Shown here one piece after another: positions 15,177-55,374 of a stretch of DNA of 64,000 nt. Under the pieces are notes generated by a model. That model had not been told where the DNA came from. It worked only from the letters and a program-made list of their open reading frames with translations, and did no database searches. The translations under genes were made by a program, and so were the position numbers. Source of the stretch: Verrucomicrobiia bacterium (GTDB lineage Bacteria; Zixibacteria; MSB-5A5; DSPP01); contig DATLYY010000003.1 in NCBI GenBank assembly GCA_035574275.1, positions 20,482 through 84,481 on the forward strand, read 5' to 3'. The stretch's first letter is position 1; every line of letters starts with the position of its first letter.

Positions 15177-15258
15177 AACCCTTTATTAAGTATAACCTCC
15201 CCTTCAAAAAAAACAACAACGCTCCCCCGGATTTTCCGTATAATTTATGACCAACGGT

Positions 15259-15813
15259 ATGAAGACCAGCCCGACGGTCGCCCGAAAAAACCTTTCCCCG
15301 CGTTTTTGGAAATCCCCCGCCTTCCGGTTTGTGGGAAAATTTCTTTTGTTTTTGATTCTCTTGGGGGCCCTTTACTCCCAAATTTCCAGCCGCTGGGATG
15401 CTTTTCGCAACGGCTTCACGGCAGCTACGGCCAGGATGGTGAGCGGCTGCTATTCGCTGGCGGGGGGCAAAACGTCGGCGGCCGGAAGTTTGATTTCCGG
15501 TGAAAAAATCGCCCTGCAGGTTATCGAGGAATGCACGGGGGCCTATGAGATGATAATTTTCGCCGCCGCTGTTATTGCCTTTCCGACCGGCTGGCGGAAA
15601 AAGGGATGGGGGATACTTTTCGGCCTCCCCCTTTTGTACGGCATAAATATTCTCCGGATGATGCTGTTGGCCTACGTTCAAGCCCACGGCAGTCCCAACC
15701 TGTTTGATTTCATGCATGTCTATTTCTGGCAGGCCACTTTGATTCTGATGATTTTAGGCGTTTTCATCCTCTGGATAAAGCTGGCGGTCTTTCGGAATGT
15801 CCAAACTGCTTAG
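15259..15813 (+). CDS. small exosortase/archaeosortase-family-like membrane protein (possible mini-exosortase)
   Basis: 4-5 TM helices with an EECTG motif at the start of a helix (compare the catalytic CSG Cys of exosortases) and an Arg in the next helix. TATAAT at 15239-15244 precedes the first ATG (15247) by 2 nt. The second ATG (15259) fits a leaderless start better. Confidence 0.4.
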   Translation: MKTSPTVARKNLSPRFWKSPAFRFVGKFLLFLILLGALYSQISSRWDAFRNGFTAATARMVSGCYSLAGGKTSAAGSLISGEKIALQVIEECTGAYEMIIFAAAVIAFPTGWRKKGWGILFGLPLLYGINILRMMLLAYVQAHGSPNLFDFMHVYFWQATLILMILGVFILWIKLAVFRNVQTA

Positions 15814-16282
15814 ATTTTTTCTTCTTCTGATAGCCGTCTCGCTTCCCCTCTTCTGGCTTTGGATGGAATGGGGGCAGGTCAATTACCAAAAGCTGATGGG
15901 GGCCGTCATTGTCCCCGCGGCCAAGGCGCTGGGGGAAAAACAGTTGAACCTGTTCGTGCTAAAGGCGCATTATATGAACGCCGTGCCGCTGGTTGCTTTG
16001 ATTCTGGTCACTCCCGCCTTGGGGTGGAAGAAACGGTTGACGGCCCTACTTCTCGGCCTGGCGATACTTTTCACCTGGCATCTTTTTTTCAGCTTGGTTT
16101 TGAACCACTATCAAACTCTTTGGGGGCGCGACCGGCGGTTCTACCGCCTTTTCATACCCGCCATCTCCATCAACTCCGCCATGCCGGTCGTTCTTTGGAT
16201 TGTTCTGGCCTGGCGGGGGGCCAAAGAACTCCTGGGGGAGATTTTCGCCCGCCCGAAAGAGTCGCAAGCGGTCAAAAACTGA
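15797..16282 (+). CDS. membrane protein (4 TM), likely partner of the exosortase-like protein
   Basis: Overlaps the upstream gene by 17 nt and is hydrophobic throughout. No known motifs. Confidence 0.45.
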   Translation: MSKLLRFFLLLIAVSLPLFWLWMEWGQVNYQKLMGAVIVPAAKALGEKQLNLFVLKAHYMNAVPLVALILVTPALGWKKRLTALLLGLAILFTWHLFFSLVLNHYQTLWGRDRRFYRLFIPAISINSAMPVVLWIVLAWRGAKELLGEIFARPKESQAVKN

Positions 16283-16305: not shown

Positions 16306-17100
16306 CTATCGGATAGCCAGGAACCGCTCCGTGTAAAGGGAAATCAGCTCCCCGCCCCAGTAGTAGGCCACGAGCGCGGCGATTACCAAAAACGGGCCGA
16401 ACGGAATCAGCCGGTCCGCCAGCGATTTCGGTTTCAACAACCGGATGACGAAGAAGGTTAAAACGGCGACCAAGGAGGCCAGAAAGAAAACCAAAAGAAG
16501 CTTTTGCCACCCCAAAAAGGCCCCCAGCATCGCCGCCATTTTGACGTCCCCCCCGCCCATGCTTTCCTTTTTGAAGATTAACTCGCCGGCATGGGCCAAA
16601 AGAAGAAATCCGCCGCCGCCGACTATAAGGCCGATAAGCCCGTTCTGCCAGCCGACTGCCGGATTCAAGAATGCATACCCCATTCCCAAGAGAATGCCGG
16701 GGAGGGTGAACCAGTCCGGGATTATTCGGAATTCAAGATCGATGAAGAAAATGACCACCAAGGCAAAATTCAGGTAAAACAGAAAGAAAAGCTTCCATCC
16801 CCAGCCAATCGAAAGGAAGGCGGTCAGAAACAACGCGGCGGTGAAAAGCTCCACGAAAAAATAGCGGGGGGAAATCGGCGTTCTGCAGAACGCGCATTTG
16901 GCGCCCAAAAAAAGATAGCTGAAAAGCGGGACATTCCCCCACCAGGGAATCGTTTTTTGGCAGGCAGGGCAGAAGCTTCGCGGCCGGACGACCGAAAGCC
17001 CGCGCGGCAGCCGGTAAATGACGACATTGGCAAAACTGCCAAAAATCAACCCGAGGGCAAAGGCAACCGCCGCGGGAATAAACTCAAGAATTATCATCAT
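16306..17100 (-). CDS. pilD: type IV prepilin peptidase (A24 family)
   Basis: N-terminal CPAC...CAFC zinc tetrad, GGGDVK motif, and polytopic membrane topology. Confidence 0.85.
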   Translation of the reverse strand: MMIILEFIPAAVAFALGLIFGSFANVVIYRLPRGLSVVRPRSFCPACQKTIPWWGNVPLFSYLFLGAKCAFCRTPISPRYFFVELFTAALFLTAFLSIGWGWKLFFLFYLNFALVVIFFIDLEFRIIPDWFTLPGILLGMGYAFLNPAVGWQNGLIGLIVGGGGFLLLAHAGELIFKKESMGGGDVKMAAMLGAFLGWQKLLLVFFLASLVAVLTFFVIRLLKPKSLADRLIPFGPFLVIAALVAYYWGGELISLYTERFLAIR

Positions 17101-18113
17101 CCAAGTTGCTCCCCTTTACTTTTCCAAGGCATTCTCCACGCTGCCAAAAACCAAACCCCTTCATAGGTCAAAGTCAGAAGCCGGGCTGCAATCGGAACCG
17201 TCGCGGCGGCATACGGCGGCAGATAGGCCGAAAGCAAGGCCAGCATCACCCCTTCCCGTACCCCCAATCCCCCGGCGGCAAAGAAGGCCAGATACCCCGC
17301 CAGATAGGCCAAAGGAAAGGCGGAAAGGGAGTACAATACTTCTCGGAACGTCAAGGAGTGGAAAGAAAGGGCCAGAAAGACCACTCCGGCGGAATTCAAA
17401 AACCAGCTGAACCCGTAGTAAACCGAGGATAAAAAAACGGGCCGCCAGCCGAACGGTTCGGGCAGCTCCGCCATCGGCGTCCGCACCAGCCGCCCGAAGG
17501 TTTTGATGATGCCGTGAAAAACTTTGGGGATAAACAGAATCAGAAGCAAGACGACAAAAGCGGCCAGAGCCCAAGTGGGAAGACCCAGTTGCTTGAAAAG
17601 CGGCAAGGCGAAAATTGTGAAGGCTGCCCCGGAAAGAAGCGAGGCAACGAATCCCAGATACAAGGCGGCCAGCAGCCGGCTTGGCGAAATCCCCAAAAAT
17701 TTCCCTAAATAGGCGAAGCTCAAGTACGACCAAATGCGCCCCGGCAGGTAGTGGGCGATGTGCGCCATGCAGTAAATTTTGTAGCTGTCGCGCACCGGGA
17801 TGGAGACCCCCGTGAATTTGAAATTGAACCAGAATGCGGCCGGCTGCCAGGAATGCCCCAAAAGAAGTAGGAGCGCCCCCAGCCCGAACCAAAGCGCGTT
17901 CGGATGAAAACCGTATCGCACGATTTCTCCCCAGTCGGCGCGGATGGTCTGATAGTAAAACCACAAAAACCAGCCGGCCGCGGCGTACTGGAGAACCGGG
18001 AAAAAAACCGACCAGAGCCGCGCTAAGCCGGTTTTTTGGTCAGCACCAAGACCCAGGCCGGCAGGGCCGTTTTGAACGGTTTCAGCAGGGAGGGTTTTAT
18101 CCATTTCATCCAC
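17097..18113 (-). CDS. flippase-like/UPF0104 (LPG-synthase TM domain) membrane protein
   Basis: Eight TM helices and a GGLGVREGV motif typical of the YbhN/MprF-N flippase-like family. The N-terminus overlaps the upstream methyltransferase by 91 nt, so the start is uncertain. Confidence 0.65.
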   Translation of the reverse strand: MDEMDKTLPAETVQNGPAGLGLGADQKTGLARLWSVFFPVLQYAAAGWFLWFYYQTIRADWGEIVRYGFHPNALWFGLGALLLLLGHSWQPAAFWFNFKFTGVSIPVRDSYKIYCMAHIAHYLPGRIWSYLSFAYLGKFLGISPSRLLAALYLGFVASLLSGAAFTIFALPLFKQLGLPTWALAAFVVLLLILFIPKVFHGIIKTFGRLVRTPMAELPEPFGWRPVFLSSVYYGFSWFLNSAGVVFLALSFHSLTFREVLYSLSAFPLAYLAGYLAFFAAGGLGVREGVMLALLSAYLPPYAAATVPIAARLLTLTYEGVWFLAAWRMPWKSKGEQLG

Positions 18114-18802
18114 TTCGGCACCACGTCGGTGGCCGAGAATTTTTCCGGGTTTTCCAGAACCCTGAACGTGTAGTCCGTGATTTCAAAACGGAAAAGAAGC
18201 TTCCGCAAAGCCCGCCAGGAAAGCAGAAACACGTCGTAATCCATCTTCCGGCCGGTTAAATGCATGTACCAGTTGGCCGGTTTGCGCGGCAGCCAGGATA
18301 AAAATGGCAACTTGTAGTGGGCTTCGACCAAAACGTAGCGGTTCCCCGCCCCAAAATAGACGCAGCCGGCCGGTTTCAGGACGCGATACATCTCCGCCAC
18401 CAGCCCGGTCTGGTTTTCAATATGCTCGTACACCTGGTTGCAGATGATGGCGTCCACCGATTCATCCGGCAAGGGCAGTCGCGCCCCGTCCCCGCAGATG
18501 GGGATCAAATTGGGAGAGGCGTTCTCTTTTCCGTATTGCAGGCCTACTTTGTCGTTGTCCAAGGCCAAAACGGTTTTGAAATGCTCGGCAAAATAGCGGG
18601 ACATAATGCAGGTGGAAGCCCCTAAATCAAGACAGGTCATGACGGACAAATCCCCGGCGAAGTCAGCCAAAACCCGAATAACCTTCTCGGCCTTTAAATT
18701 CCGTTCCCCCTTCCGGAAAAGAATGGGAAAACGCTCCGAAAAAGTCCCCTCCGGCCCCCAGCGCCGTTCTATGGACAGATCAACTTGCGGCAGCTTCCCC
18801 AT
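18023..18802 (-). CDS. class I SAM-dependent methyltransferase
   Basis: Motif I LDLGASTC and a Methyltransf_11-like core. Confidence 0.75.
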   Translation of the reverse strand: MGKLPQVDLSIERRWGPEGTFSERFPILFRKGERNLKAEKVIRVLADFAGDLSVMTCLDLGASTCIMSRYFAEHFKTVLALDNDKVGLQYGKENASPNLIPICGDGARLPLPDESVDAIICNQVYEHIENQTGLVAEMYRVLKPAGCVYFGAGNRYVLVEAHYKLPFLSWLPRKPANWYMHLTGRKMDYDVFLLSWRALRKLLFRFEITDYTFRVLENPEKFSATDVVPKWMKWIKPSLLKPFKTALPAWVLVLTKKPA

Positions 18803-19487
18803 CCTCGCTCCTTAGGTAAAAGATTATCGAGAGGGAAAACCAGTCCGGCAGCCAGCGGGCCAGAAGCTGCGCCAACCTCTCCCCCCAAAGTCCCGGCGGG
18901 CAGAGGGTGACCGGAATCATCCGCCTCGTTTTGAGCCCGCATTGTGCGAATAGTTGAAGCGCCGTTTTCCGGTCAAATAGCCGTAGATGCGGAGTTTGGA
19001 TACCGGCCCAGCTTGTACGCCCAAGGAGAATTCCGAGCCGGCGCAGGAGGTGAAACTCGTTCGGCACGGAGATGACCAAAATGCCGTCCGGGTTCAAGGC
19101 CGCTTTCAGTTTTGCGACCGTCTTTTCCGGATAACGCAGGTACTGCAAAACTTCCATGCAGAAAATCGCGTCGTATTTCTGCTCCAGCTCATCCTCCTCC
19201 AAATCGAAGACAAAGCCGACCAGTCCCTGCTGCCGCAGCAGTTGGACCGAGTCGGAGGAGACGTCACAGGCCGAAACCTCATATCCTTTTTCCATCAGCA
19301 TCCGGGCGATAAGCCCCCGCCCGGCGCCGACATCCAGAATTTTCTTCCCCGGGAGGGAGGAAAGATTGCTTTCAACAAACTGCCAGCGCTGCAACGTCCG
19401 CTTATCCACCCGTTCCGGTTCCTGTTTTTTCCAGAACCGGTCGAAGAAAACGCCGGTTTGCTTTTCGGGAACATCTACCGCCATCAT
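18780..19487 (-). CDS. class I SAM-dependent methyltransferase
   Basis: Motif I ILDVGAGRG. The start is set to MMAVDV (ATG 19487), 1 nt after the upstream GT4 stop. The longer ORF runs to 19547. Confidence 0.75.
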   Translation of the reverse strand: MMAVDVPEKQTGVFFDRFWKKQEPERVDKRTLQRWQFVESNLSSLPGKKILDVGAGRGLIARMLMEKGYEVSACDVSSDSVQLLRQQGLVGFVFDLEEDELEQKYDAIFCMEVLQYLRYPEKTVAKLKAALNPDGILVISVPNEFHLLRRLGILLGRTSWAGIQTPHLRLFDRKTALQLFAQCGLKTRRMIPVTLCPPGLWGERLAQLLARWLPDWFSLSIIFYLRSEDGEAAAS

Positions 19488-19488
19488 C

Positions 19489-20643
19489 TTAATCAAACAG
19501 ATTCGCCATCTGGCTCCGCAGCGGCTGTCCGCTCCGCTTGCGGGCAATTACCTTCAAAAAGTCGTTGGCCGCCCGGTTAACATCCAAAAGGTCAAGAAGC
19601 CCGGAGGAAGCCGGGTCGTAATTCCTTTTTTCATGCATGAAGGCAAACATCGCCTGCGCCAGGCTTTCCGGGTCGTGCGGCGGAACCACTTTTCCCAAAC
19701 TGAACTTTCGAACCAGATACCCCATATCCCCCACGTCCGTGGCGATCACCGGCGTTCCGGAGGCCACCGCTTCGGTCAAAACGAGCGGAATGGAGTCGGA
19801 ATGGCTGGGGATCAAAACGCAGGCGGCCCGGCGCAGATAGGTCGCCGCCTCCTTTTCAGAAATTTTACCGTGAAAAATTGCCTTGTCCCCCAGTTTCAGC
19901 TCGGCCAACCGTCTGGGGATTTCGCCGGCCAAACTTCCCCAGCCGGCGATTTCCAGGACCGCCGGCTTCTTTTTCGCCACGTAGGAAAAGGCCAGAAGCA
20001 TATCCTCGATTCCCTTTTCCCGCTCCAGCCGGCCCAGATAGAAAAAGCGGTTGTAGTTTGTTTTGGGAAGAACCGTCCGTTTTTCGCGGCGGCGGGCGGA
20101 GGGGAGAAAACGGCACTCCCGGCCGGAAAGCTCCTCCACCTTCTGGCACAAATCAAACCCGTCGCCGAACAGATGGTCGGCCCCCTGCAGAACCTGGCGG
20201 GTCAAAAGCCCGAAAAAGGGGCGCTCCGACCATTTGTACACGTCCGAGCCGAGACACCAGACGGAGTACGGAATGCCGGTGCGCTGGCTCAAGTAGCGGG
20301 CGAAGTAGCCGGAAGGGAGCGCCCACAAAGCCAAAAGATAATCGACATCGTGGGTGAGCACGAACGGCATCGCCGCCTTCCGCCCGCTGTAAAGAAAGTT
20401 GGCCAGCTTGAGCCAGTTGAGCGGATTTTTGTAATTCAGCGAGCCGATGGGGGCAATCGAGCCGGACCAGGGGAAGCGGAAAACCTCCGGGTCGCTGGCG
20501 GGATGATCCACGACGTATTCCGGCGTGAAAACAGAAACTTTATGCCCCCTTTCGCGCAGGGCATGGACGAAGTCCTTCACGAACGGGCTGGCGGTATCCC
20601 CCTTCCCGGCCGGATAGCGGTTGGTGACAAGCCCCAGCTTCAT
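19489..20643 (-). CDS. GT4-family glycosyltransferase
   Basis: Glyco_trans_4 N-domain and GT1/GT4 C-domain with an E...E motif region (LIPSHSDSIPLVLTEAVASGTPVIATDVGD). Confidence 0.85.
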   Translation of the reverse strand: MKLGLVTNRYPAGKGDTASPFVKDFVHALRERGHKVSVFTPEYVVDHPASDPEVFRFPWSGSIAPIGSLNYKNPLNWLKLANFLYSGRKAAMPFVLTHDVDYLLALWALPSGYFARYLSQRTGIPYSVWCLGSDVYKWSERPFFGLLTRQVLQGADHLFGDGFDLCQKVEELSGRECRFLPSARRREKRTVLPKTNYNRFFYLGRLEREKGIEDMLLAFSYVAKKKPAVLEIAGWGSLAGEIPRRLAELKLGDKAIFHGKISEKEAATYLRRAACVLIPSHSDSIPLVLTEAVASGTPVIATDVGDMGYLVRKFSLGKVVPPHDPESLAQAMFAFMHEKRNYDPASSGLLDLLDVNRAANDFLKVIARKRSGQPLRSQMANLFD

Positions 20644-21704
20644 ACCTTCACCTTCTCTCTATTTCTCTTTTCGACCCGCACTTGAAAATCCAACTGTTCT
20701 TTTCCGCCGGAAAGCTCTTCCAGTTTCAGCATTGTTTCCTTGGCCGTTTTTTGGATACGGTAGATTTCCCGCTTTAAGTGCACGAGCTGGGTGCCGAGGA
20801 AGCCGAAAAACAAAGTCGCCAGACCGGCCAGGAAAGCCAGTACCGTAAGAGTGACCAAAGGCCGGGTCGGGTTCAAATTCCCTTCTTGCCAGAGATACCA
20901 GATATACACCGCCCCGCCAAACGAAAGCAAAACCAGAAACAAACCGACCCCGCCGAAAAGCAGAACCGGCTTTTCATGGAAGGAGAACAGGATGTGGGAA
21001 ACCGCCGTGGCGGTGAATTTGAACTTTGATTTCCCCAGCTTGCGGGCTTTCAAAACCGCAGGCATTTCGACCACGCGATAGCCCATACCAAGGGCACGGG
21101 CCAGAATTTCGAGATGAATTTCCTTCCCTTCCGCTTCCAGCTCCAGCGCTTCCAGAACCTTCTTGCGGTAGCCCCGCACCATTCCAGTGACGGTGGCCAG
21201 CCCCCTCTTCATGGCGAAGCCCAAAATTTTGTTCCCCAGCTTGGAAATCCAAAGCCGCCACAAAGGGACGTTTTCCACCCCGCCTCCCTTGGTATAAGGC
21301 GAGGCGACCACGATATCCACTTCTGGGTGGGCCTGCAGAATTTGGGCCATCGCCAAAAGATATTCCTCGCTGTAGGACAAATCGGCGTCGGCGGTGATGA
21401 TGATTTCCTTGGCGGAGGCGGCGAACCCCTGCCGCAGCGCCCAGCCCCGCCCGCGGTTGGGGAAATAGGAGACGAGCCGGACGCGCGGCTCCTGCTCGGC
21501 AAAGCTCAAAACCGAAAGCGCCGTCCGGTCGGTGGAGCCGTCATCCACGGCAATGATTTCCCAATCCCCGCCAATGGCCCGGAAGGCGGCGGCGATGCGG
21601 GACAAAGTCGAGGAGACGTTTTGCTCCTCGTTGTACATCGGCACCACCACGGAGACGCCGTATAATTGTCTTTGCAGTGACCTGTTATCTTGTCGTTTTT
21701 TCAT
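20640..21704 (-). CDS. GT2 polyprenyl-phosphate glycosyltransferase (Dpm1/GtrB/ArnC-like) with C-terminal TM anchors
   Basis: VVVPMYNEE...DDGSTD...DAD (DxD) GT2 core followed by two C-terminal TM helices, the architecture of polyisoprenyl-phosphate hexose synthases. Confidence 0.85.
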   Translation of the reverse strand: MKKRQDNRSLQRQLYGVSVVVPMYNEEQNVSSTLSRIAAAFRAIGGDWEIIAVDDGSTDRTALSVLSFAEQEPRVRLVSYFPNRGRGWALRQGFAASAKEIIITADADLSYSEEYLLAMAQILQAHPEVDIVVASPYTKGGGVENVPLWRLWISKLGNKILGFAMKRGLATVTGMVRGYRKKVLEALELEAEGKEIHLEILARALGMGYRVVEMPAVLKARKLGKSKFKFTATAVSHILFSFHEKPVLLFGGVGLFLVLLSFGGAVYIWYLWQEGNLNPTRPLVTLTVLAFLAGLATLFFGFLGTQLVHLKREIYRIQKTAKETMLKLEELSGGKEQLDFQVRVEKRNREKVKV

Positions 21705-23784
21705 CTTCTCGCCCCATCGGTTTTAATTTGTCCGGTAAAAGCCAGTTCCCCTCCGCCCGGGCCTCCTTGGCCTCGTCAAATTTTCCCTGCTCCTGAAGTG
21801 CCGTGGCCAGAAAAAAGTACGCCTCTCCCCAGTATGGATCATAAGAAAGCGCCAGCTTAAAGCAGGTCTCGGCCAAAGGATACTGCCGGGCATAGAGGTA
21901 CGCCTTACCCACCGTGACCCAGGTGCGCGGGTTCTCGCCGTCGTATTCCGTCGCCAGTTTGAGCAAATCATCGGTCTCCGGAGCACCAATCTTGGACAAG
22001 TAGGCCCCCCAATTGTATATTTCTAATTCTAAGCTTTCCCGCGTGAGTTTATCCGACCCCCCGATGTAGGTCTTGCGCACAAAGTTCACCACCTGCTTCG
22101 GCACCTCCAGCCCCACCTTCTCTCGCCGGAATTCAAGGAGATAGTCGAAGGGCCAAAAGTAGCGACAATCGCTGATGTGATACCCCAGCTGGGTGAAAAT
22201 CGGCCGTTCGTTTTTTTGACAGAACGCCGCAAAGCCGCGCCGGAGTTGAGTCAACGGTTTGGCACTATTCGGGATTGAATCGATAATCAAATCCGGATAA
22301 CGGTGCCGTGTCCATTCGGCCAAGTGCGGTTGAAAAAAAACATTTGACAAGACAATGGCCACATCCGGCCTTTGCCCCAAAGCCCCCTGCTGGTACAAAG
22401 CGGCGGTCAGCAGGCGGTCGGAAGAGTAAACAACGACGGCGTTGGGCGGCAGGGAACGCAAGCTCTCTTCCGCAATTTTTTGCGGCCAGCTGCTCTGATG
22501 TAAATCGCATTCGCCCCAATTTTTTGCCGCCAAAAAAAGACCAAATGACATCGTAAGAACGGGAACTGCCCAGCTAATTTTTAGCGCAAATCGGGACACG
22601 CCCTTTGACAGCCAAGTAAGGACTTGCATCAAACCCGCCGTCGCCGTCAAAACAGCCAGTCCGGTCCCAAAAGAGAGATATCCCAAGATATCCATATTAT
22701 AGGGGTTGAATTCCGCCGCCCACAAGGTCACCAGAAAATTGGACAACAAAAGCACAAAAACACCCAGGCCGATCCGGGGTAAATGATGCGCGAGTACAAG
22801 AGCTCCCGGGATGACTAAAAGCCAGAAAACCGCCGAAAATTCCGATTGAAAAAAGACCGCGAGCCGCATCATATTGGGATAGGAAACGTTGGTCGGCGTG
22901 TCGTCGATGGACTCCTGCCAACTGCCGGAACGGGTGAGGGCGGCCCAGAAACGCTCCCAATTGTCCGGCTGGTTCCAGTTGAAATACGGGTCCTGGGCGG
23001 AGCGGATGGGCAAAAACAAATACATCGTGGCCGCAAGCAGGATTAGACCGGCCACCCAACCCCATTTAGACAGTTCTTCTTTCCAGTTGTCGGATTTATA
23101 ACAGCCCATAATTAAAAGCCCCGGCAAAATCGAAACCGACTGCAGCGGATGATTGGTGGCCGAAAGTCCCCACAGAAACGCACCCAAAAGGAAAAAATGG
23201 GTTGGCTTATCGATCTTTTCCAACGACAGCGCAATCAGCAGAACCGAAAAGATCAATATCAACTGTAGAGAGTACACTTCCGCCCGCACGGCCTGCAGCC
23301 AGACCGTCTGGCTGAAGGCAAAAACCAAAGCCGCTCCCAGCGCCGTTAAAGTCACAACCGCAGGATTTGTCGCCAAAACACCGGTCGTTTCCTCTTCCCT
23401 TATCGTGGAGGATTGGGGCTTGTCCCGAGAGAAGTCGAGGGAAGGGGTTACAAAAATATCCGCCAAAACCTTTTTAACGCACAGGAAGAATAGAGCCGCT
23501 CCCGCCGCCCCAAAAAGCCCGCACATCATATTGGTGGCCCGTGCGGGGTTATGCGGAATAAGCCAACTGAAAAGCTTGCCAATCAAAACCCACAACGGAA
23601 AGCTGGGCGAATGAGGTAAGCTAAGGGTGGCCGCCGCCATCGAAAAGGTGGCGGAATCCTCCCAGAAGGGTCCCGGCGCGGCCGTGTAGAAATAGACCCC
23701 CAAAGGCAAAATGAACGAGGCCAAAAGACAAAAACGCTCCAAGCGGTTATCCATATCCCCTTTCTTGTTTTCGGTAAAAAACAC
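21685..23784 (-). CDS. DUF2723 (TMEM260/PMT-like, predicted GT-C fold) polytopic membrane protein with C-terminal TPR repeats
   Basis: About 11 TM helices, a conserved N-terminal DxD-like loop (PGPFWEDSATF), and a C-terminal TPR pair. The family is related to protein O-mannosyltransferases. Confidence 0.8.
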   Translation of the reverse strand: MFFTENKKGDMDNRLERFCLLASFILPLGVYFYTAAPGPFWEDSATFSMAAATLSLPHSPSFPLWVLIGKLFSWLIPHNPARATNMMCGLFGAAGAALFFLCVKKVLADIFVTPSLDFSRDKPQSSTIREEETTGVLATNPAVVTLTALGAALVFAFSQTVWLQAVRAEVYSLQLILIFSVLLIALSLEKIDKPTHFFLLGAFLWGLSATNHPLQSVSILPGLLIMGCYKSDNWKEELSKWGWVAGLILLAATMYLFLPIRSAQDPYFNWNQPDNWERFWAALTRSGSWQESIDDTPTNVSYPNMMRLAVFFQSEFSAVFWLLVIPGALVLAHHLPRIGLGVFVLLLSNFLVTLWAAEFNPYNMDILGYLSFGTGLAVLTATAGLMQVLTWLSKGVSRFALKISWAVPVLTMSFGLFLAAKNWGECDLHQSSWPQKIAEESLRSLPPNAVVVYSSDRLLTAALYQQGALGQRPDVAIVLSNVFFQPHLAEWTRHRYPDLIIDSIPNSAKPLTQLRRGFAAFCQKNERPIFTQLGYHISDCRYFWPFDYLLEFRREKVGLEVPKQVVNFVRKTYIGGSDKLTRESLELEIYNWGAYLSKIGAPETDDLLKLATEYDGENPRTWVTVGKAYLYARQYPLAETCFKLALSYDPYWGEAYFFLATALQEQGKFDEAKEARAEGNWLLPDKLKPMGREDEKTTR

Positions 23785-23810
23785 CTTTTCCGTAACCCTT
23801 TCCCCCTCTC

Positions 23811-23852
23811 CGCGTCGGAGAGGGGGTTAGGGGGTGAGGTTAACAGAGCAAA
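23811..23852 (-). repeat. copy 1 (diverged) of the 42-nt hairpin element CCCCTCTCCG(c/t)GTCGGAGAGGG-TTAGGG-GAGGTTAA
   Basis: Shares the 9-bp stem / 3-nt loop and the TTAGGGnGAGGTTAAC tail with copies at 33856-33898 and 37924-37965. Confidence 0.6.
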
Positions 23853-23857
23853 AAAAA

Positions 23858-23889
23858 GCCCCCCGTACGGGGGGCTTTTTCGTGACGCA
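23858..23889 (-). terminator. bidirectional rho-independent terminator (A8-GCCCCCCGTACGGGGGGC-T5)
   Basis: Perfect 8-bp GC stem flanked by A and T runs, just downstream of the pilin gene stop. Confidence 0.8.
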
Positions 23890-23892
23890 AGG

Positions 23893-24327
23893 TTACTGTA
23901 TCGCGTCGTCGGTCGTGACGATGAGGTTTCCGGTTTGATCAATCTGCCAAGTATCAACCGTCGCGTCGTCGTCCAGGTCTTTGGCGAGAGCCCGCGCCCG
24001 ACAGGTGAAAGCCGTAGCATTCGCCACGGTGAAGTCATAGGAGTAACGGGCGGTTAACCCGATTTCCACGCCAATACTGTCAAAGGCGTTCGGCGTCGCC
24101 GGACCGGCTATCAAAGCAGTTGACCAATATCGGTCTTTTTCCTGCCGAAAGGCCTGCTGCATCGTGTAAACCTGCTTCAGAATCTGCTTGGCTTCCGACT
24201 GTTTGGACTTGGTCGTCGCGCGCATAAAACGCGGAATCGCCAGAGCCGCCAGAATACCGATGATGACCACCACGATCATCAGCTCGATAAGGGTGAAACC
24301 CTTCTGGCTGTTTTTCTTGTTGAACAT
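23893..24327 (-). CDS. type IV pilin (class III signal peptide MFNKKNSQKG|FTLIELMIVVVIIGILAA)
   Basis: Canonical prepilin leader with Gly-1, Phe+1 and Glu+5. GGGAGG lies 6 nt before this ATG, and an upstream ATG at 24357 is less likely. Confidence 0.85.
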   Translation of the reverse strand: MFNKKNSQKGFTLIELMIVVVIIGILAALAIPRFMRATTKSKQSEAKQILKQVYTMQQAFRQEKDRYWSTALIAGPATPNAFDSIGVEIGLTARYSYDFTVANATAFTCRARALAKDLDDDATVDTWQIDQTGNLIVTTDDAIQ

Positions 24328-24377
24328 CTGTTCCTCCCTTTGGTTATTGGTTTTCATAATCGTCGGCTAACAGTTAC

Positions 24378-24393
24378 GCAACCCCAATGCCAA
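24378..24393 (-). promoter_or_regulatory. sigma-54 -24/-12 promoter (TTGGCAT-N5-TTGCG) upstream of pilin 1
   Basis: The minus strand reads TGGCATTGGGGTTGCG: GG-N10-GC spacing with a TGGCA -24 and TTGC -12, about 50 nt upstream of the pilin ATG. Confidence 0.55.
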
Positions 24394-24554
24394 AAGATGC
24401 CCAAGCCGGGCATTTTTTCGGCCTCGCAAGTGATTTGTTTACAAACGGTTACAGAAGGCCGCAAACTCCAGGCGGGTTTCAAACCCGCCCCTACACGGAT
24501 TCCAAGGGTAACCCGCCAATTATTTTGCAAAATGCGAATGATCAGAATGGTCTT

Positions 24555-24618
24555 TGTAGGGGCGGGTTTTAAACCCGTCCCTTGCCACCATCCGGGCAGG
24601 TTTAAAACCTGCCCCTAC
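24555..24618 (+). repeat. REP doublet (BIME-like): GTAGGGGCGGGTTTTAAACCCGTCCCT ... GGGCAGGTTTAAAACCTGCCCCTAC
   Basis: Two palindromes of 25-27 nt separated by an 11-nt spacer, 38 nt upstream of the RAYT start. Confidence 0.8.
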
Positions 24619-24655
24619 CATTGACAAACCGAAATGTCCATGCATTTTTTGCCGA

Positions 24656-25264
24656 ATGTCAATAGAGAACCGGCCTAAACCCCAGCGCCGTTCCATTCGG
24701 CTGCGGGGCTACGATTATTCCAGGGAGGGTGGATATTTCATAACCATCTGCACTGGGAATAGAGAATCTCTCTTTGGCGAAATCATAGATGGCCAGATGC
24801 GATTGAATGACCTCGGGCTGATAGTCCAGAAGGTTTGGGATGAATTGCCCGAACATTACCCGTCGATTGAATTGGATAAATTTGTCATTATGCCCAATCA
24901 TATTCACGGGATTATCATCCTTGTAGGGGCGGGTTTGAAACCCGCCCTTTCCACCCCCCGGGCAGGTTTAAAACCTGCCCCTACAGGTGAAAATTCGAAG
25001 AAACGTTCACTGGCGGAAATTGTCCGGGCGTTCAAGACATTCTCTGCTCGACGAATAAACGAATTTCGACGAATGCCGGGCCTTCCCATCTGGCAACGGA
25101 ATTATTACGAACATATTATCCGCAATGAATCCTCCCTAAACAAAATCCGGGAATACATTAAGGGCAATCCATTGAATTGGGCCTTGGACATCGAAAACCC
25201 GGCCATTTTATCCAATCCGAATAGCCGCCGAAGCGAAGAAAAATTCTGGAACGTATCGGCGTAA
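24656..25264 (+). CDS. REP-associated tyrosine transposase (RAYT, IS200/Y1-like) carrying an in-frame REP-doublet insertion
   Basis: HUH motif (HIHGII) and a C-terminal WQRNYYEHIIRNE tyrosine helix. Between them, 22 residues (VGAGLKPALSTPRAGLKPAPTG) are encoded by a REP doublet at 24922-24985. Confidence 0.8.
   Translation: MSIENRPKPQRRSIRLRGYDYSREGGYFITICTGNRESLFGEIIDGQMRLNDLGLIVQKVWDELPEHYPSIELDKFVIMPNHIHGIIILVGAGLKPALSTPRAGLKPAPTGENSKKRSLAEIVRAFKTFSARRINEFRRMPGLPIWQRNYYEHIIRNESSLNKIREYIKGNPLNWALDIENPAILSNPNSRRSEEKFWNVSA
24922..24985 (+). repeat. REP doublet located inside the RAYT coding sequence
   Basis: Near-identical to the 24555-24618 doublet. The reading frame is maintained. Confidence 0.8.
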
Positions 25265-25282
25265 ATGGCCGGTGAGGCACAA

Positions 25283-25315
25283 CAAAAAAGCCCCGCTCTT
25301 GCGGGGCTTGATTTA
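25283..25315 (-). terminator. bidirectional rho-independent terminator (A6-GCCCCGC-TCTT-GCGGGGC-TTGATTT)
   Basis: Hairpin between the convergent RAYT and pilin-2 3' ends. Confidence 0.7.
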
Positions 25316-25333
25316 ATCGTGCCGATTCTTGAC

Positions 25334-25771
25334 TTACAATATCGCGTCGTCGGAAGTGACAACCAGATTGCCGGTATTGTCAATTTGCCAGACATCAGCG
25401 GCCGGATCCGTGTCTAAAGCCGGAGAACTGGCAGTTGCGACGCAGATAAAAGCGGTGGCATTTGCAACTGTCATTGTATAGGTATATCTTGAGTTTGAAG
25501 CAATATCGACACCAATCCGTGCAAAAGCCGTGTCTGCTCCGTTTGCATAAGCAGAAACGCCGGCTCCCCAATATCCATCGTACTGCTGTCTGTAAGATAG
25601 CTGCATTGTATAAACTTCCTTTAAAATCGTTCTTGCCTCCGACTGCTTGGCTTTGACGGTTGCCAACATGAAACGCGGCAGAGCCATCGCCGCCAAAATG
25701 CCGATGATAACCACCACAATCATCAACTCTATCAAGGTGAACCCTTTGTCCCGTCTCATAAGTTTAGGCAT
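25334..25771 (-). CDS. type IV pilin paralog (leader MPKLMRRDKG|FTLIELMIVVVIIGILAA)
   Basis: Canonical class III signal. The mature N-terminal 45 aa are about 85% identical to pilin 1 and the C-terminal beta domain is diverged. The ORF track start (25828) is probably too long. Confidence 0.85.
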   Translation of the reverse strand: MPKLMRRDKGFTLIELMIVVVIIGILAAMALPRFMLATVKAKQSEARTILKEVYTMQLSYRQQYDGYWGAGVSAYANGADTAFARIGVDIASNSRYTYTMTVANATAFICVATASSPALDTDPAADVWQIDNTGNLVVTSDDAIL

Positions 25772-25794
25772 ACGTCCCTCGCACCCCTTTTTAT

Positions 25795-25810
25795 GGCAAA
25801 CCCCGTTCCA
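25795..25810 (-). promoter_or_regulatory. sigma-54-like -24/-12 promoter (TTGGAAC-N5-TTTGCC) upstream of pilin 2
   Basis: GG-N10-GC spacing, 24 nt upstream of the ATG at 25771. Confidence 0.5.
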
Positions 25811-25979
25811 AAACCGCTTTATTTTCATCTTCCTTGTCCATCAACGACTTACCTTGCCGCGGGGCTTTTTGGGTTCCGAAGAGGCCATTGGCGGCGAGCC
25901 GGCCGCCTTGCGTTCTGCAAGGGTTATCTCCTTTTCCAGCTTGAAAAGTCGCCAATTCACTACGCTTCTTTCAACCTGA

Positions 25980-26408
25980 TTAGGATCTCGTATCGTCAGA
26001 AACAACCACCAATGAGCCTTTCTCGTCAATCGTCCACACGTCTGTCGTAGCGTCGCCATCCAAAATACCAGAAGTTGCTCTACAGACAAAAACACTGTCA
26101 TAAACTACCGTGAAAACATAGGAATAGCGATTGGTGCAATTAAAATCCACACCAATCGGGAGAAATGCATACGGATTTGCTGCGGAGCCTTCGATACCTC
26201 CGGCTGGCCAAAAAACTCCGGTATTCTGCCGATAAGCCAATTGCTGTTGATAAATTTCCTGCAACTTTGATTTGGCTTCATCCTGCTTGCTTGGTGTTGG
26301 CGGGGCGATCGTTATATATTTTGTTTCAGTACAGCCCCAAGCCAGCAACATTAAGACCGTCAAACCCAAAACCACAATCTCCTCAATTCCAAACTTTCTT
26401 GTTTTCAT
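25980..26408 (-). CDS. pilin-like paralog with a degenerate prepilin leader replaced by a lipoprotein-like signal (…LLAWGC)
   Basis: The C-terminal 90 aa align with pilins 1/2 (NRYSY.FTV...DVW.ID..G.LVV.SDD). The N-terminus lacks G|F..E and instead has a hydrophobic core followed by Cys. Confidence 0.6.
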   Translation of the reverse strand: MKTRKFGIEEIVVLGLTVLMLLAWGCTETKYITIAPPTPSKQDEAKSKLQEIYQQQLAYRQNTGVFWPAGGIEGSAANPYAFLPIGVDFNCTNRYSYVFTVVYDSVFVCRATSGILDGDATTDVWTIDEKGSLVVVSDDTRS

Positions 26409-26422
26409 ATCTTCCTCCTACT

Positions 26423-26438
26423 GCAAAGCTTGTTCCCA
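26423..26438 (-). promoter_or_regulatory. sigma-54-like -24/-12 promoter (TTGGGAAC-N4-TTTGCA) upstream of pilin-like 3
   Basis: GG-N10-GC spacing with the TTGCA -12 element. The -12 lies only 15 nt from the ATG. Confidence 0.45.
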
Positions 26439-26468
26439 AACCCCAGCGTCGCCGTTCTCTATTCTACG

Positions 26469-28486
26469 CTAACGACTTGACTGCCTTTTCGATTTCTTTG
26501 GCTCCATCGCAGCAATTGGAGCCGACCCTGCTTTCTTGCTTTCTGCAAGGGTTATTTCTTTTTCCAGCCTCATTATTCTCTTTTGCACTTCCTCCCCCTT
26601 CTCCCCCCAAGCGACGGTTTTGTGATAGCGGTTCAAGGCCTTCTTTTTCGCCCCGCGCCATTCGTAGTACAAGCCGGAGCGGTAGAGGTACAGAACGAGC
26701 ATTTTGACCGCCTGCGGGTCGTTCTGCATCACCCGGTCATCCGCCGTCCAGAGATTGGAAACCTCCCACATCAACTGCCGCTCGAGGGAAACGGTGTCCA
26801 GAACGAAGGGGGTGTCTATCAATTGGAAGAGAAAGCCGGTCGGCTGCAAGCGCTCGACCAAGTCCTTGTCCCGCTCGGTGAATTCCAGAAAAACCGGGAC
26901 TTTTTTCTGCGTCAGCCGCGTGGTCCAATGACGGAAAAGCGCATCCCCCTCTCTTTTCTTCGGCTTGGAGGAAAAGACCGTGGTGAGACGGGGAAAATTC
27001 TCAACCAAGCTTTTGCGGTACCAATCCGCCTCCATAAACGCCCGGTTCACCACCACCACGTCCTTGCGCCACCCCTCGCCGTATTGCACTCCGCGCAGAA
27101 CAAAATCGAGCGCGGGGGAATCGAGAAAAACCACCCCCCCCGGAGGAACGGGGGAAAGCGCCTCCTGCGCCATCTTCAAGGCAATTCGGTTTTCAGATAG
27201 GTCGCATAGGGGACGGGAAAAGGTCCAGGGGATCAAACTGAATAGCAAAAACAGACCCGCCAGCCCTACGCGGGCAAAGCCGACCAGAAAATTGGAAACC
27301 GCGCCGACGGCATGCTCCACCACGCCAAAGAAGGCCGCAATGGTCGTGGCGATGCCGAGCCCCAAGGCAAAAAGGGAAAAGACCAGATAGCCGTGCAAAT
27401 CCGGATTGTCCGGGATAACCTCGGCCGCCAGGAGGGCGGTGACCAAAAGGTTGCCGGCGAGCAGGAAAGCCGCCTTCCAAAACCAGCTTTTGTTTGTGAA
27501 AAGCAGAATCAAAAACCCGCCGAAGGCAAAGAAGAAAAGTCCCATTCCAAGCTGGTCAAACAAAACGGACAAAAGTTGGTGCATCTTTACCAGATTGTCG
27601 ATGAACGAGGTGGAAATGGTTTTGTAGGAATCGGTGGCCAAGACCAGATTGGCGGTGGAGGCAAAATCGGCCGGTCCCCCCCAGTTGAAAAGCGGCTGGC
27701 TCCAGGCCCGCACGGGCAGGTAGAGATAGGTTGAAATTCCAAGCAGAAACAAGAAGAACAAACCCATCCATTTTTTAAAATTCAAGCTGGTAAAGGTGGA
27801 CGGCCCCGCCACGGCGAAAAGAAACGGGAAGGTGGCCAAAAGAGTGATGTGGTGATTCCCCAATCCGAGAAACGCGACGAAAATTCCGAGCCAGAACCAG
27901 CGGGCTGTGGCATGATTCCCAACTTTGACTACGGCCGGCGTATAGTCGCCGCTTTCCTCGCCGAAGGACTCGAAGCCGGGCCGCGGAAAGGAAGCGGAGG
28001 GCTGCCTTGCCGCTTCGGGGCGGGGCGGCGGCGTTGCCCGCAGAAAACAATAAAGGGCAAAAGTGAACAAAAACGCCCCCAAGGTATAAACCTCCGCCCG
28101 CACCGCCTGAATCCAGAAAGTGAAAGTGAAACCGATGGTCAAAGTGGTGAAGAAAGCCACCAGATTCCGCCGGGCCGCCGAGCCCCCCAAAAGTTCGTTC
28201 TGTCTTTTCAAAAACATTACCAGCGAAAGATGGAAGAAAACAAGCGCCAAGGCGCCGCAAAAACCGGAGAAAAGATTCTGCTGATAAACAAACCCGCCGA
28301 TGGGCAGGTAGCTGAAAAGCTTGGCCATAAGAACGTAGAGCGGAAACCCCGGCCGGTGCGGTACGCCGAGCGTCTTGACATTGGCCACCAACTCGCCGGA
28401 ATCCCACCAGAAAACGGAGGGGGCAGTGGAAACGAGATACACCAGAAAGAAGAAGAAGAAAAGAAAACTTGGCCCCAGCGCCTTTT

Positions 28487-28490
<4 letters not shown>
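26469..28490 (-). CDS. second DUF2723 (TMEM260/PMT-like GT-C) membrane protein paralog
   Basis: Same polytopic architecture and conserved N-terminal loop (PSVFWWDSGEL) as 21685-23784. The start is set to MKKALGPSF (28490), directly after the stop of the response-regulator gene. The ORF track N-terminal extension (to 28781) overlaps that gene. Confidence 0.8.
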
Positions 28491-29848
<1,358 letters not shown>

Positions 29849-29966
29849 ACTCCCCCATTTTGGGCCAAAAGTAAACGGCCCCCTTTCCTTATTTTATCGG
29901 CAAATTTTGTGGAATTTTCAGAGGGAAATGCAAATAGAAACGCTGTGCGGGTGAAGCAGCCCCGCC

Positions 29967-31214
29967 CTATTCTTTCGGCTCTTTTTGGCCGGAGCCGAAG
30001 ATATCCAGCATTTTTACGCCGGGAGTGTATTCGAGGGTGGCCGGCTCCGTGATGCGCATCAAGGCGGCGGTCACTTCTTGAATGCGCCCGGCCGCTTCCT
30101 CGATGATTTTCAGCTTTTCCTCCACGTCCGGGGGCAGGTCTTTTGTACGCAGGCGGACCAACTGGGCGTTCCCGATGACCGCCGTGAGCGGGTTGTTCAC
30201 CTCGTGGCTGACGGCAATGGCGGTCTCGATGATCGCCGCCAGCCGCTCTTTTTTTATTTCCTCCGACTGGGAGAGGGACAAGGCCATTACCGCCCGGCGG
30301 ATTTCAAGATAGGACAAAACATTTTCCGCCCCGAGCAGAACCGCGGCAAGCTTTTCTAAAACGGCGGTCTTCTGCCCCTCTTCTATTGCGACCGAACTAC
30401 CGAGGTAAAAAAGCCCCCCGAATTTCCCGCCGGTTTTTACCGGGATAATCAAAGCCGACTTCGAGCCGGCCGCCCTGAAGCGTGCCTCCGCCGTCCCCAA
30501 TCGGGACAAAAGTTGAACCTCCCCCTTCCCCCAGAGTTTGCCGAAGGCGGAATGCGGGTCCAGTTCCGAATGGCTTTGTTCCTCGGCGGTGGAAGCTCCG
30601 GCGGAGAGGAAAAATTCGCGGAAGGTTTTTTCCTCATCGAACAAAAACCCGACGAGGTTGAAGCTCTCTTTTTTTAAAAAATTCCGCGCCCAGAAAAGAA
30701 ACGCTCCCGGTTCCAGGGGGGCGACCGGCCTCGCACCCGAATGTGCGATTGCCGCTTCTTTCTGTTTTTGCGAAAGCGTCCGCTCGAAGGTCAGGGCGAA
30801 TTGGATGCCGAGGGCGGAGAGAAACTCCTCATCCCCGGCAAAATTCCGCTCCTTTTTATCCAGCCCTTCGAGCAACCCGAGCGGGCCGAAACTGCCGGAA
30901 ACCGGCACCCCGAAAACCGCGCGGGCTCCTTCCCGCTTGAGCGAAAGATGAAACCCCTCCACTCCGTAGTTTTTTCGCAGCCCGGCCAGCACTTCCTTTT
31001 CCAGTTCGGCCAAGGCCGAAAGCGCCTGTCTTTGCCCGGATTCGATAACGATTTCCTTTTCCCCCAGGAAATTGATGTGCAACGAGAGCGCTTCCAGCTC
31101 TAAAAGTTCGGCAACCTCCCCCAAAATCCGCTTGGCGAGCGGCTCGAACTCCCCCTTGGCCAAGGTAAGCGTTTTTAGGATTTCAAACTTTTTTCTAAAC
31201 CCGGTCTCCGACAT
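29967..31214 (-). CDS. GAF-domain sensor protein with a HisKA phospho-acceptor domain but no HATPase_c domain
   Basis: H-box SHEVNNPLTAVIGNAQL lies near the C-terminus and the protein ends about 75 aa later without N/G1/G2 boxes. A 118-nt non-coding gap follows. Confidence 0.7.
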   Translation of the reverse strand: MSETGFRKKFEILKTLTLAKGEFEPLAKRILGEVAELLELEALSLHINFLGEKEIVIESGQRQALSALAELEKEVLAGLRKNYGVEGFHLSLKREGARAVFGVPVSGSFGPLGLLEGLDKKERNFAGDEEFLSALGIQFALTFERTLSQKQKEAAIAHSGARPVAPLEPGAFLFWARNFLKKESFNLVGFLFDEEKTFREFFLSAGASTAEEQSHSELDPHSAFGKLWGKGEVQLLSRLGTAEARFRAAGSKSALIIPVKTGGKFGGLFYLGSSVAIEEGQKTAVLEKLAAVLLGAENVLSYLEIRRAVMALSLSQSEEIKKERLAAIIETAIAVSHEVNNPLTAVIGNAQLVRLRTKDLPPDVEEKLKIIEEAAGRIQEVTAALMRITEPATLEYTPGVKMLDIFGSGQKEPKE

Positions 31215-46858: not shown

Positions 46859-46865
46859 TGTTTTA

Positions 46866-46894
46866 TACCCAATGCCCAAAAACTTGTCAACCCG
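46866..46894 (-). promoter_or_regulatory. TTGACA-N17-TATAAA promoter ending 7 nt before the ATG (leaderless)
   Basis: Minus strand: TTGACAAGTTTTTGGGCATTGGGTATAAAACACCAATGG. Confidence 0.6.
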
Positions 46895-46936
46895 AACCTT
46901 GCCAGCCGTCGTACGTAAAGTTATTTTGGGTGTCCG

Positions 46937-55373: not shown

Positions 55374-55374
55374 A

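Follow-up and report, generated by a model that had tools for sequence, protein, structure and literature searches.

The DNA analysed here, called the window throughout, is a 64-kb stretch of contig DATLYY010000003.1. The subject of this analysis is a series of minus-strand genes between its positions 16306 and 31214, in which type IV pilin genes stand among two paralogous DUF2723 proteins (Pfam PF11028, CAZy family GT117) and a set of putative glycosylation genes. A first-pass annotation made from the sequence alone had put this series forward as a candidate pilin O-glycosylation locus. Searches against Pfam, NCBIfam and PDB sequences recovered every gene family that it had named, all on the minus strand; the 14 genes that it counted are 13 by its own list. 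In order of transcription, the features of the locus are as follows (sizes in amino acids, aa):

29967..31214, minus strand: soluble 415-aa protein with a HisKA domain only, upstream of the activator (Pfam HisKA, 38 bits)
28487..29848, minus strand: sigma-54 activator of the NtrC/PilR type, with REC, AAA+ and HTH_8 domains (Sigma54_activat 237, Response_reg 102, HTH_8 52 bits)
26469..28490, minus strand: DUF2723/GT117 paralogue 2, 673 aa, the 'upstream type' (PF11028, 88.8 bits)
25980..26408, minus strand: pilin-domain paralogue with a degenerate class III leader, aligning with the pilins over the globular domain and ending in ...VVSDDTRS
25796..25810, minus strand: sigma-54 promoter-like site TGGAACGGGGTTTGC (pattern search)
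25334..25771, minus strand: type IV pilin beginning MPKLMRRDK-GFTLIE... and ending ...VTSDDAIL (N_methyl, 42.7 bits)
24469..25264, plus strand: insertion made of a Y1 transposase open reading frame (ORF) resembling REP-associated tyrosine transposases (RAYT) and five palindromes resembling repetitive extragenic palindromic (REP) elements (Y1_Tnp, 29 bits)
24378..24392, minus strand: sigma-54 promoter-like site TGGCATTGGGGTTGC (pattern search)
23893..24327, minus strand: type IV pilin beginning MFNKKNSQK-GFTLIE... and ending ...VTTDDAIQ (N_methyl, 41.4 bits)
21685..23754, minus strand: DUF2723/GT117 paralogue 1, 689 aa, the 'downstream type' (PF11028, 101 bits; TPR_2, 32 bits)
20640..21704, minus strand: GT2 protein of 354 aa, candidate polyprenyl-phosphate sugar synthase, with two C-terminal membrane helices (PDB and NCBIfam matches)
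19489..20643, minus strand: GT4 glycosyltransferase of 384 aa, with no membrane segment (Glycos_transf_1, 102 bits)
18780..19487, minus strand: class I S-adenosylmethionine (SAM) methyltransferase a, probable start at 19487 (Methyltransf_23, 74 bits)
18023..18802, minus strand: class I SAM methyltransferase b (Methyltransf_11, 72 bits)
17097..18113, minus strand: polytopic LPG_synthase_TM/UPF0104 protein, candidate flippase (PF03706, 33.6 bits, cut-off 33.4)
16306..17100, minus strand: prepilin peptidase PilD, last gene of the overlapping operon (A24_N_bact 111, Peptidase_A24 79 bits)

The series had been described as a co-directional run with short gaps. The minus-strand series stands, but the gaps are neither uniform nor always short: 1006 nt separate the two canonical pilin genes, and a transposase ORF lies in this interval on the plus strand. 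Seven genes, from DUF2723 paralogue 1 through the GT2, GT4, methyltransferase and UPF0104 genes to pilD, overlap or nearly touch, with successive spacings of -20, -4, +1, -23, about -7 and -4 nt. This overlapping enzyme operon does not include the pilin genes (138 nt lie between the pilin at 23893-24327 and DUF2723 paralogue 1), and further upstream the activator stop codon and the start of DUF2723 paralogue 2 overlap by 4 nt. The long ORF of paralogue 2, at 770 aa, is over-extended; this overlap and the lengths of the orthologues place its start at 28490, giving the 673-aa protein listed. Similarly, the true start of the UPF0104 gene is probably internal, near 18030. Long antisense ORFs such as 19156-20685 (plus strand), which overlaps the GT4 gene, were treated as spurious. 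The arrangement as a whole is far beyond chance, being kept in relatives down to approximately 25% identity, with the pilin-DUF2723 pairing recurring in other phyla. PilB, PilC, PilT and PilM-Q were searched for in the window, and none was found.

Both PF11028 scores lie above the Pfam gathering cut-off of 24.2 bits, and a profile of the DUF2723 subfamily (alignment A1 of DUF2723 relatives) matched the structure of human TMEM260 (PDB 9rql_A) with E = 2.9e-51, its positions 11-516 aligning to residues 30-529; the same structure was reached from a single sequence with E = 2.7e-11. AlphaFold2 models were obtained with a predicted local distance difference test (pLDDT) score of 88 and a predicted template modelling (pTM) score of 0.89 for paralogue 1, and with 86 and 0.88, respectively, for paralogue 2. 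Their top Foldseek matches in the PDB were PglB, ArnT, AglB, ALG12/ALG9, STT3, AftA/AftB and Pmt4, with PglB and ArnT leading for paralogue 2; TMEM260 was not among them, perhaps because it is missing from that copy of the structure library. Judged by these matches, both proteins are homologues of TMEM260, and a GT-C fold is confidently predicted from the models, in agreement with the earlier proposal that DUF2723 is a GT-C family related to TMEM260 and to protein O-mannosyltransferases (PMT). Paralogue 1 is built from three parts: the GT-C core in the membrane, a Rossmann-like domain and, at the C-terminus, a TPR domain whose helical repeats occupy residues 569-672 of the model. The C-terminus of paralogue 2 is also modelled as helical, without a Pfam TPR match.

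The mechanism of TMEM260 indicates which residues matter. In this enzyme, D52, H67, R264 and Y267 bind the dolichyl-phosphate mannose donor, D441 of the luminal Rossmann-like domain is the catalytic base, and the TPR domain holds the extended acceptor peptide; D52, H67, R264 and D441 are each essential (10.64898/2026.03.17.711096). According to the HMMER alignment, D33, H48, R275 and D446 of paralogue 1 are the equivalents of these four essential residues. Within the subfamily, D33 never varies, at least 90% of sequences have R275 and D446, and most have H48; the equivalents of TMEM260 Y267 and R355 are not clearly conserved. Paralogue 1 is thus like TMEM260, which O-mannosylates the IPT domains of plexin, cMET and RON, in approximately 500 residues of homology, in its three-part build and in its four key residues, but it differs in residing in a bacterial inner membrane, in presumably using undecaprenyl phosphate rather than dolichol, and in having pilins as its proposed acceptors. 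We regard paralogue 1 as a candidate pilin O-glycosyltransferase. Of the four residues, paralogue 2 has D52 and H67 in equivalent positions; Ala stands where R264 would be, and the D441 column is occupied by Pro, an Asp being found two residues before it. Its orthologues likewise have the first two, together with Ala, Gly or Asn in the R264 column and an acidic residue near the D441 column that is displaced by as many as two positions. In four loci (L009, L011, L033 and L044, at approximately 4200-4430), a third, more divergent DUF2723 type lies upstream of the activator, so that in some Zixibacteria loci the pilins are surrounded by as many as three distinct GT117 paralogues.

The adjoining GT2 protein had been called Dpm1/GtrB-like, and this assignment held: its closest PDB relatives are polyprenyl-phosphate sugar synthases, namely the dolichyl-phosphate mannose synthase (DPMS) of Pyrococcus furiosus (5mlz, 9.6e-25), ArnC (3e-19) and GtrB (7e-15). 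The top NCBIfam models were ArnC, PgfS, AglJ and PpgS, all scoring under their equivalog cut-offs. Two membrane segments (247-265 and 283-301) were predicted, and a DXD motif can be read as 'TADADLS'. For the GT4 protein and the methyltransferases, PDB and NCBIfam searches gave generic matches only. In gene order, GT4 comes after GT2 in nearly all related Zixibacteria-type loci, methyltransferase a is conserved after GT4, and methyltransferase b beside a. For the UPF0104 protein, PF03706 was recorded in orthologues of 292-311 aa.

We compared, among downstream-type DUF2723 genes with enough flanking DNA, the presence of an adjacent GT2 gene with the state of the four key residues. With an adjacent GT2 gene, all four were present in 25 of 26 proteins, the remaining one having a single change; without it, at least one of the four was replaced in six out of six. 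The association is strong when phylogeny is left uncorrected (Fisher exact p = 7.7e-6), and the six GT2-less loci fall in at least three places of the tree. Such a pattern would be expected if the GT2 protein made the donor used by the GT-C enzyme. In these loci (L029, L030, L034, L035, L040 and L046), the H67 and/or R264 equivalents are replaced, and in L035 those of D52 and D441 as well. That pilins are retained where the GT2 gene and key residues have gone suggests that glycosylation was lost in some lineages.

These residues also bear on a different explanation, in which one or both DUF2723 proteins would be inactive, serving as pilin-binding accessory proteins or chaperones in the manner of TfpY/TfpX, while the sugar genes would belong to another pathway. 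The Ala and Pro of paralogue 2 at the R264 and D441 positions would fit such a role, as would the several relatives that stay beside pilins without their key residues. Yet paralogue 1 and almost all of its GT2-linked relatives are intact, the clade of paralogue 2 has D52 and H67 as well as an Asp no more than two residues away from the D441 column, and key residues go missing where GT2 does, which is what one would predict of proteins that act as enzymes when intact. We consider an inactive role very unlikely.

Three pilins had been reported. Two of them, at 23893-24327 and 25334-25771, carry the class III signal, with the G|FTLIE methylation motif and, after it, a hydrophobic helix (N_methyl, 41-43 bits), whereas the third, at 25980-26408, has a degenerate leader: neither N_methyl nor any other Pfam model matched it, and the leader reads KFGIEEIVV...LLAWGC. 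Its origin can be traced in the flanking DNA. The last 100 nt or so of the DUF2723 paralogue 2 gene (26470-26570, minus strand) are repeated after the pilin-like gene (25843-25945, minus strand), which indicates a tandem duplication of a unit made of the gene tail and a pilin; the first copy (25980-26408) then lost its canonical prepilin leader. Across loci, the pilins share a C-terminal end, [CV]-[TV]-[ST]-D-D-[AS]-x-x, in which the Ser/Thr is present in 54 of 59 sequences and the second Asp in all 59.

The interval between the two canonical pilin genes holds the insertion listed above. Its plus-strand ORF (24656-25264) encodes a Y1/IS200-like transposase of the RAYT type, and the REP-like palindrome GGGGCGGGTTTNAAACCCGCCCC occurs there in five copies (24469-24981), against 0 expected by chance. 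These palindromes flank the transposase ORF, and two of them lie inside it, where they are translated as 'VGAGLKPA...'. The insertion is outside the glycosylation system.

The co-occurrence of DUF2723 and pilin genes in other genomes, expected from the initial proposal, was found repeatedly. In a scan of one genome per species, which yielded 67 DUF2723 loci, a pilin gene with a class III signal lay upstream of DUF2723 on the same strand in 34, and in 31 of these 34 it was located 400-900 nt from the DUF2723 start; the same motif search in 552 kb of flanking background found none. In contigs at 59-69% identity the cluster is complete, down to the HisKA-only protein and PilD, and a third DUF2723 paralogue is present on one of them. 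Relatives at 27-28% identity keep the order activator, two pilins, DUF2723, GT2, GT4 and two methyltransferases, and differ in the genes downstream. The window's architecture was also found on contig L079, together with genes for amino-sugar synthesis.

Outside this group the pairing recurs with other partners. A Thermodesulfobacteriota metagenome-assembled genome (MAG) has a pilin gene followed by DUF2723, and a Parcubacteria MAG (GCA_002687175.1, L080) has the order PilC, pilin, YfhO, a protein without assignment, methyltransferase, DUF2723, pilin and PilD. In a large Burkholderiales-type clade, the order is pilin (PF00114), GT2, membrane proteins, GT2 with GtrA, DUF2723, then a second DUF2723, GT87 or DUF2079 gene, and a methyltransferase; this architecture was seen in five out of five cases with upstream DNA available. 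The Burkholderiales-type loci L067, L074, L076, L077 and L078, whose pilin is of the Pseudomonas type, include a GT2 protein with GT2_TM_C and a GT2 protein fused to GtrA, with YfhO also among their GT-C-like proteins, and nucleotide-sugar aminotransferase genes are often near such pilin loci. In a rough neighbour-joining tree, pilin-linked DUF2723 genes are distributed over several separate clades. Since the adjacency recurs in at least five labelled lineages with different accessory genes, shared ancestry of one gene block is ruled out: the pilin link is not one inherited block.

The locus had also been given a PilSR-like sigma-54 system with a GAF/HisKA sensor. The NtrC-type activator and sigma-54 sites were found, and most related loci likewise have an NtrC homologue upstream of their pilins. 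On the sensor side, the HisKA domain was retrieved, while the GAF match remained below threshold and neither an HATPase_c domain (Pfam) nor a hydrophobic segment that could cross the membrane was detected, only 30 residues following the HisKA domain. As the protein is without a kinase domain, the 'PilS-like' label is loose. Its composition is not peculiar to this contig: HisKA-only proteins of 415 aa are kept in the orthologous loci L001 (2551-3798) and L002 (3757-5004). A complete PAS-HisKA-HATPase kinase is encoded at 11307-13094 on the plus strand, and L001 too has one in the vicinity of its cluster; this could be the true kinase.

The sigma-54 pattern TGG-N8-TTGC occurs 13 times in the whole window against 12.5 expected, i.e. 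without enrichment, so that only the position of sites upstream of pilins and their conservation across loci carry weight. Two of the 13 immediately precede the canonical pilin genes, and across loci the pattern is present within 150 nt upstream of 29 of 57 pilins, versus 1.4% of control windows. The TGGAACGGGGTTTGC element also precedes the first pilin in L001, L002 and L025, and in these three loci the second pilin is preceded, at the distance seen in the window, by an element near-identical to TGGCATTGGGGTTGC. The sequence GGGAACAAGCTTTGC (approx. 26423-26437), upstream of the pilin-like gene, was rejected as a sigma-54 site; it has a mismatch and is only 15 nt from the ATG. As in PilS-PilR systems, an NtrC-type activator adjoins the pilin genes and promoter-like sites precede them; the differences are that the partner here has HisKA only, with no ATPase domain or membrane segment, and that a GT-C gene is translationally coupled to the activator. 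Judged from domains and predicted sites, the arrangement appears to be the usual one of PilR apart from the truncated partner protein.

From these elements, we read the locus as a PilR/sigma-54-controlled pilin locus fused to a polyprenyl-phosphate-dependent periplasmic O-glycosylation pathway, and we consider this reading probable. Recurrent synteny and the co-loss pattern lead us to infer that the pilins are the acceptors and that the GT2 protein supplies a polyprenyl-phosphate sugar to the DUF2723 enzymes. The locus came through every computational test that was run as a candidate for pilin O-glycosylation, and the candidacy generalizes to several phyla, while remaining a prediction.

Several observations weigh against this reading. 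In addition to the missing R264 equivalent of paralogue 2, the UPF0104 match is borderline and the gene is absent from the majority of distant loci. Terminator-like hairpins, at 25288-25309 after the pilin 25334-25771 and at 23859-23874 after the pilin 23893-24327, stand between the pilin genes and the enzyme genes, and because of these hairpins, which resemble intrinsic terminators, the two sets do not form one simple operon. The acceptor sequon of TMEM260 was not visible in these pilins, as judged by eye only. The [ST]-D-D end of the pilins is kept in loci without GT2 and without the DUF2723 key residues; because it persists even beside decayed enzymes, calling it a sequon is not justified, and it may be a structural motif rather than a glycosylation site. 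The relatives are all uncultured, and no cultured organism with such a locus was present among the homologue search results. Lastly, a broader sample of 80 metagenome loci, drawn with a motif not specific to the window's subfamily and scored for pilins within 6 kb, was pilin-linked in only 11 (approx. 14%), with PilD only in two more.

Most DUF2723 genes in this broader sample are not near pilins, and the family (8095 representatives at 50% identity with E ≤ 1e-30) must therefore have other acceptors; the idea that all DUF2723 enzymes are pilin enzymes is ruled out by the 11 of 80, and the link is a property of particular clades. In the more general form of our proposal, certain bacterial GT117 clades would be dedicated type IV pilin O-glycosyltransferases, forming 'pilin glyco-islands' with a GT2 protein of the DPMS/GtrB type, methyltransferases and additional GT-C enzymes in lineages as far apart as Zixibacteria, Proteobacteria and Parcubacteria; we regard the chances for and against this generalization as evenly balanced.

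The same observations lend themselves to another explanation, namely that the GT2/GT-C module glycosylates a target other than pilins (periplasmic or surface proteins, lipopolysaccharide (LPS) or lipid A, exopolysaccharide) and that pilin adjacency reflects co-regulation or co-inheritance. The low linkage in the broader sample, the Myxococcota and Chloroflexota loci of the genome scan, which have no pilin, and the terminator-like hairpins would all be accommodated, and GT-C relatives such as ArnT do act on lipids. An LPS core-type cluster is indeed encoded elsewhere in the window (54360-61287, minus strand), with two GT9 heptosyltransferases, a GT2 protein and an ABC exporter resembling MsbA, which marks the envelope as diderm and gives it a separate set of glycosylation genes. 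A non-pilin target is, however, difficult to reconcile with pilin adjacency in at least five labelled lineages whose accessory genes differ, with the presence of PilD inside the same overlapping operon, and with the protein-acceptor architecture of TMEM260 (Rossmann-like domain, TPR domain and D441-equivalent base) being kept. Thus, we judge it unlikely.

Among known pilin glycosylation systems, the closest in outline is TfpW of Pseudomonas aeruginosa group IV, a GT-C enzyme of 646 aa, predicted to cross the membrane 11 times and ending in a TPR domain; its gene directly follows pilA, and it adds D-arabinofuranose (D-Araf) from a decaprenyl-phosphate donor; a motif in periplasmic loop 4, YX6PFX7P, is conserved in TfpW homologues (10.1101/2020.04.19.049825). 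Paralogue 1 resembles it in being a pilin-linked GT-C protein encoded directly 3' of a pilin, in size (689 versus 646 aa), in having approximately 11 membrane helices, a TPR domain at its periplasmic C-terminus and an acidic motif in periplasmic loop 1, and in presumably using a polyprenyl-monophosphate sugar provided by separate genes. One could accordingly suppose that the DUF2723 proteins belong to the TfpW family, and that the locus represents the pilin arabinosylation of Pseudomonas group IV in another host. The proteins, however, are PF11028/GT117 members, and their relatives lack the motif of TfpW: YX6PFX7P had no match in ORFs of more than 450 aa from loci L001-L078 (a scan that left out the two window paralogues). 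The donor is a second point of divergence. No genes for a D-Araf donor (DprE1/DprE2, phosphoribosyltransferase) were detected among the cluster genes with Pfam, the donor gene being instead a GT2 of the DPMS/GtrB type, and each locus has two to three paralogues in addition to GT4 and methyltransferase genes. No match named TfpW appeared in three homologue searches, and a tblastn search of plasmids with a proteobacterial DUF2723 was empty. Membership of the TfpW family is scarcely probable on these grounds.

Other systems share parts of the scheme. In the Gtr, Arn, Ppm-Pmt and Pgf systems, a sugar is loaded in the cytoplasm, flipped and then transferred in the periplasm. The present locus resembles them in that a GtrB/ArnC/DPMS-like GT2 adjoins a GT-C enzyme and a small polytopic membrane protein. 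It differs in its flippase candidate, which is UPF0104/LPG_synthase_TM where those systems have GtrA or ArnE/F (in Burkholderiales-type loci, GtrA-domain proteins take this place), and in its proposed acceptor, a pilin instead of O-antigen, lipid A or actinobacterial lipoproteins. With PglL/TfpO (PilO; Neisseria, Pseudomonas group I, Acinetobacter), it would have in common periplasmic pilin O-glycosylation from a lipid carrier, the TfpO gene also being beside pilA. These enzymes, in contrast, belong to the Wzy_C family, have a different fold and use oligosaccharides linked to undecaprenyl pyrophosphate; no Wzy_C domain was found by Pfam in any cluster protein.

The pathway that we favour, pilin O-glycosylation from a polyprenyl-phosphate donor, would operate as follows. 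At the cytoplasmic face, the membrane-anchored GT2 protein would charge polyprenyl (undecaprenyl) phosphate with a sugar taken from a nucleotide sugar, as its homology to DPMS, ArnC and GtrB leads one to expect. The GT4 protein and the two SAM methyltransferases might then elaborate the lipid-linked sugar, for example with a second sugar or O-methyl groups, a speculative step for which the archaeal AglJ/AglP pathway, where a dolichyl-phosphate-linked glycan is extended and methylated, provides an analogy. Equally speculatively, the UPF0104 protein may flip the carrier, by analogy with the flippase domain of MprF. Paralogue 1 would bind the lipid-linked sugar in its GT-C core, its Rossmann-like and TPR domains holding an extended stretch of the membrane-anchored pilin, and would transfer the sugar to a Ser/Thr hydroxyl by means of the Asp equivalent to D441; the class of enzyme is shown by homology, and synteny points to this acceptor. 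For paralogue 2, which presumably shares a transcript with the activator and has two of its key positions altered, one may speculate on a second site or pilin, or on glycan extension. A parallel role in extension could be imagined for the GT87 or DUF2079 proteins of the proteobacterial loci. PilD, from the same overlapping operon, would mature the pilins.

The host itself deserves a comment. In NCBI, a MAG protein labelled 'Verrucomicrobiae bacterium' matches paralogue 1 with 100% identity; the named relatives of paralogue 1 are mostly labelled Zixibacteria, one partial match of 72% identity being labelled Limisphaerales. Elsewhere in the window, type IX secretion C-terminal sorting domains (Por_Secre_tail, FlgD_ig) occur on secreted peptidases and other proteins (9501-11192, plus strand; 45587-47290 and 13038-15176, minus strand), alongside an M14 carboxypeptidase bearing a dockerin. 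These sorting domains fit a host of the Fibrobacteres-Chlorobi-Bacteroidetes (FCB) group, and the Verrucomicrobiae label is probably that of a mislabelled bin. Immediately beyond pilD, a small exosortase/archaeosortase-family protein (15247-15813, plus strand; XrtH model, 90.4 bits for a cut-off of 86) and a 161-aa partner without family match (15797-16282, plus strand) converge on pilD; both genes hold the same position in L001 and L002.

The first-pass annotation had considered a pilin-dedicated DUF2723 system to be undescribed. For the enzyme family, this agrees with the literature covered: no study of bacterial DUF2723/GT117 function was found there, and full-text matches were confined to TMEM260 papers. 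NCBI already uses the name 'glycosyltransferase family 117' for some members. The concept of a pilin-dedicated GT-C enzyme, on the other hand, already exists with TfpW, and the new element appears to be the use of the DUF2723/GT117 family for pilins. If this is true, pilins would have a third glycosylation enzyme family, beside PglL/TfpO and TfpW, and a first function would be given to the bacterial relatives of TMEM260, a human disease gene whose mechanism was solved only recently. The loci could then supply bacterial homologues for structural work on this mechanism, as well as compact O-glycosylation cassettes (GT2, GT-C enzyme and acceptor) for glycoengineering. By analogy with Pseudomonas, the payoff for the cell is likely to be a masked or diversified pilus surface, for instance against pilus-specific phages. 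The recurrent link with pilins gives the large DUF2723 family a concrete and testable bacterial acceptor, and it suggests that pilus surface masking, which affects phage resistance and adhesion in Pseudomonas and Neisseria, may be widespread in uncultured lineages.

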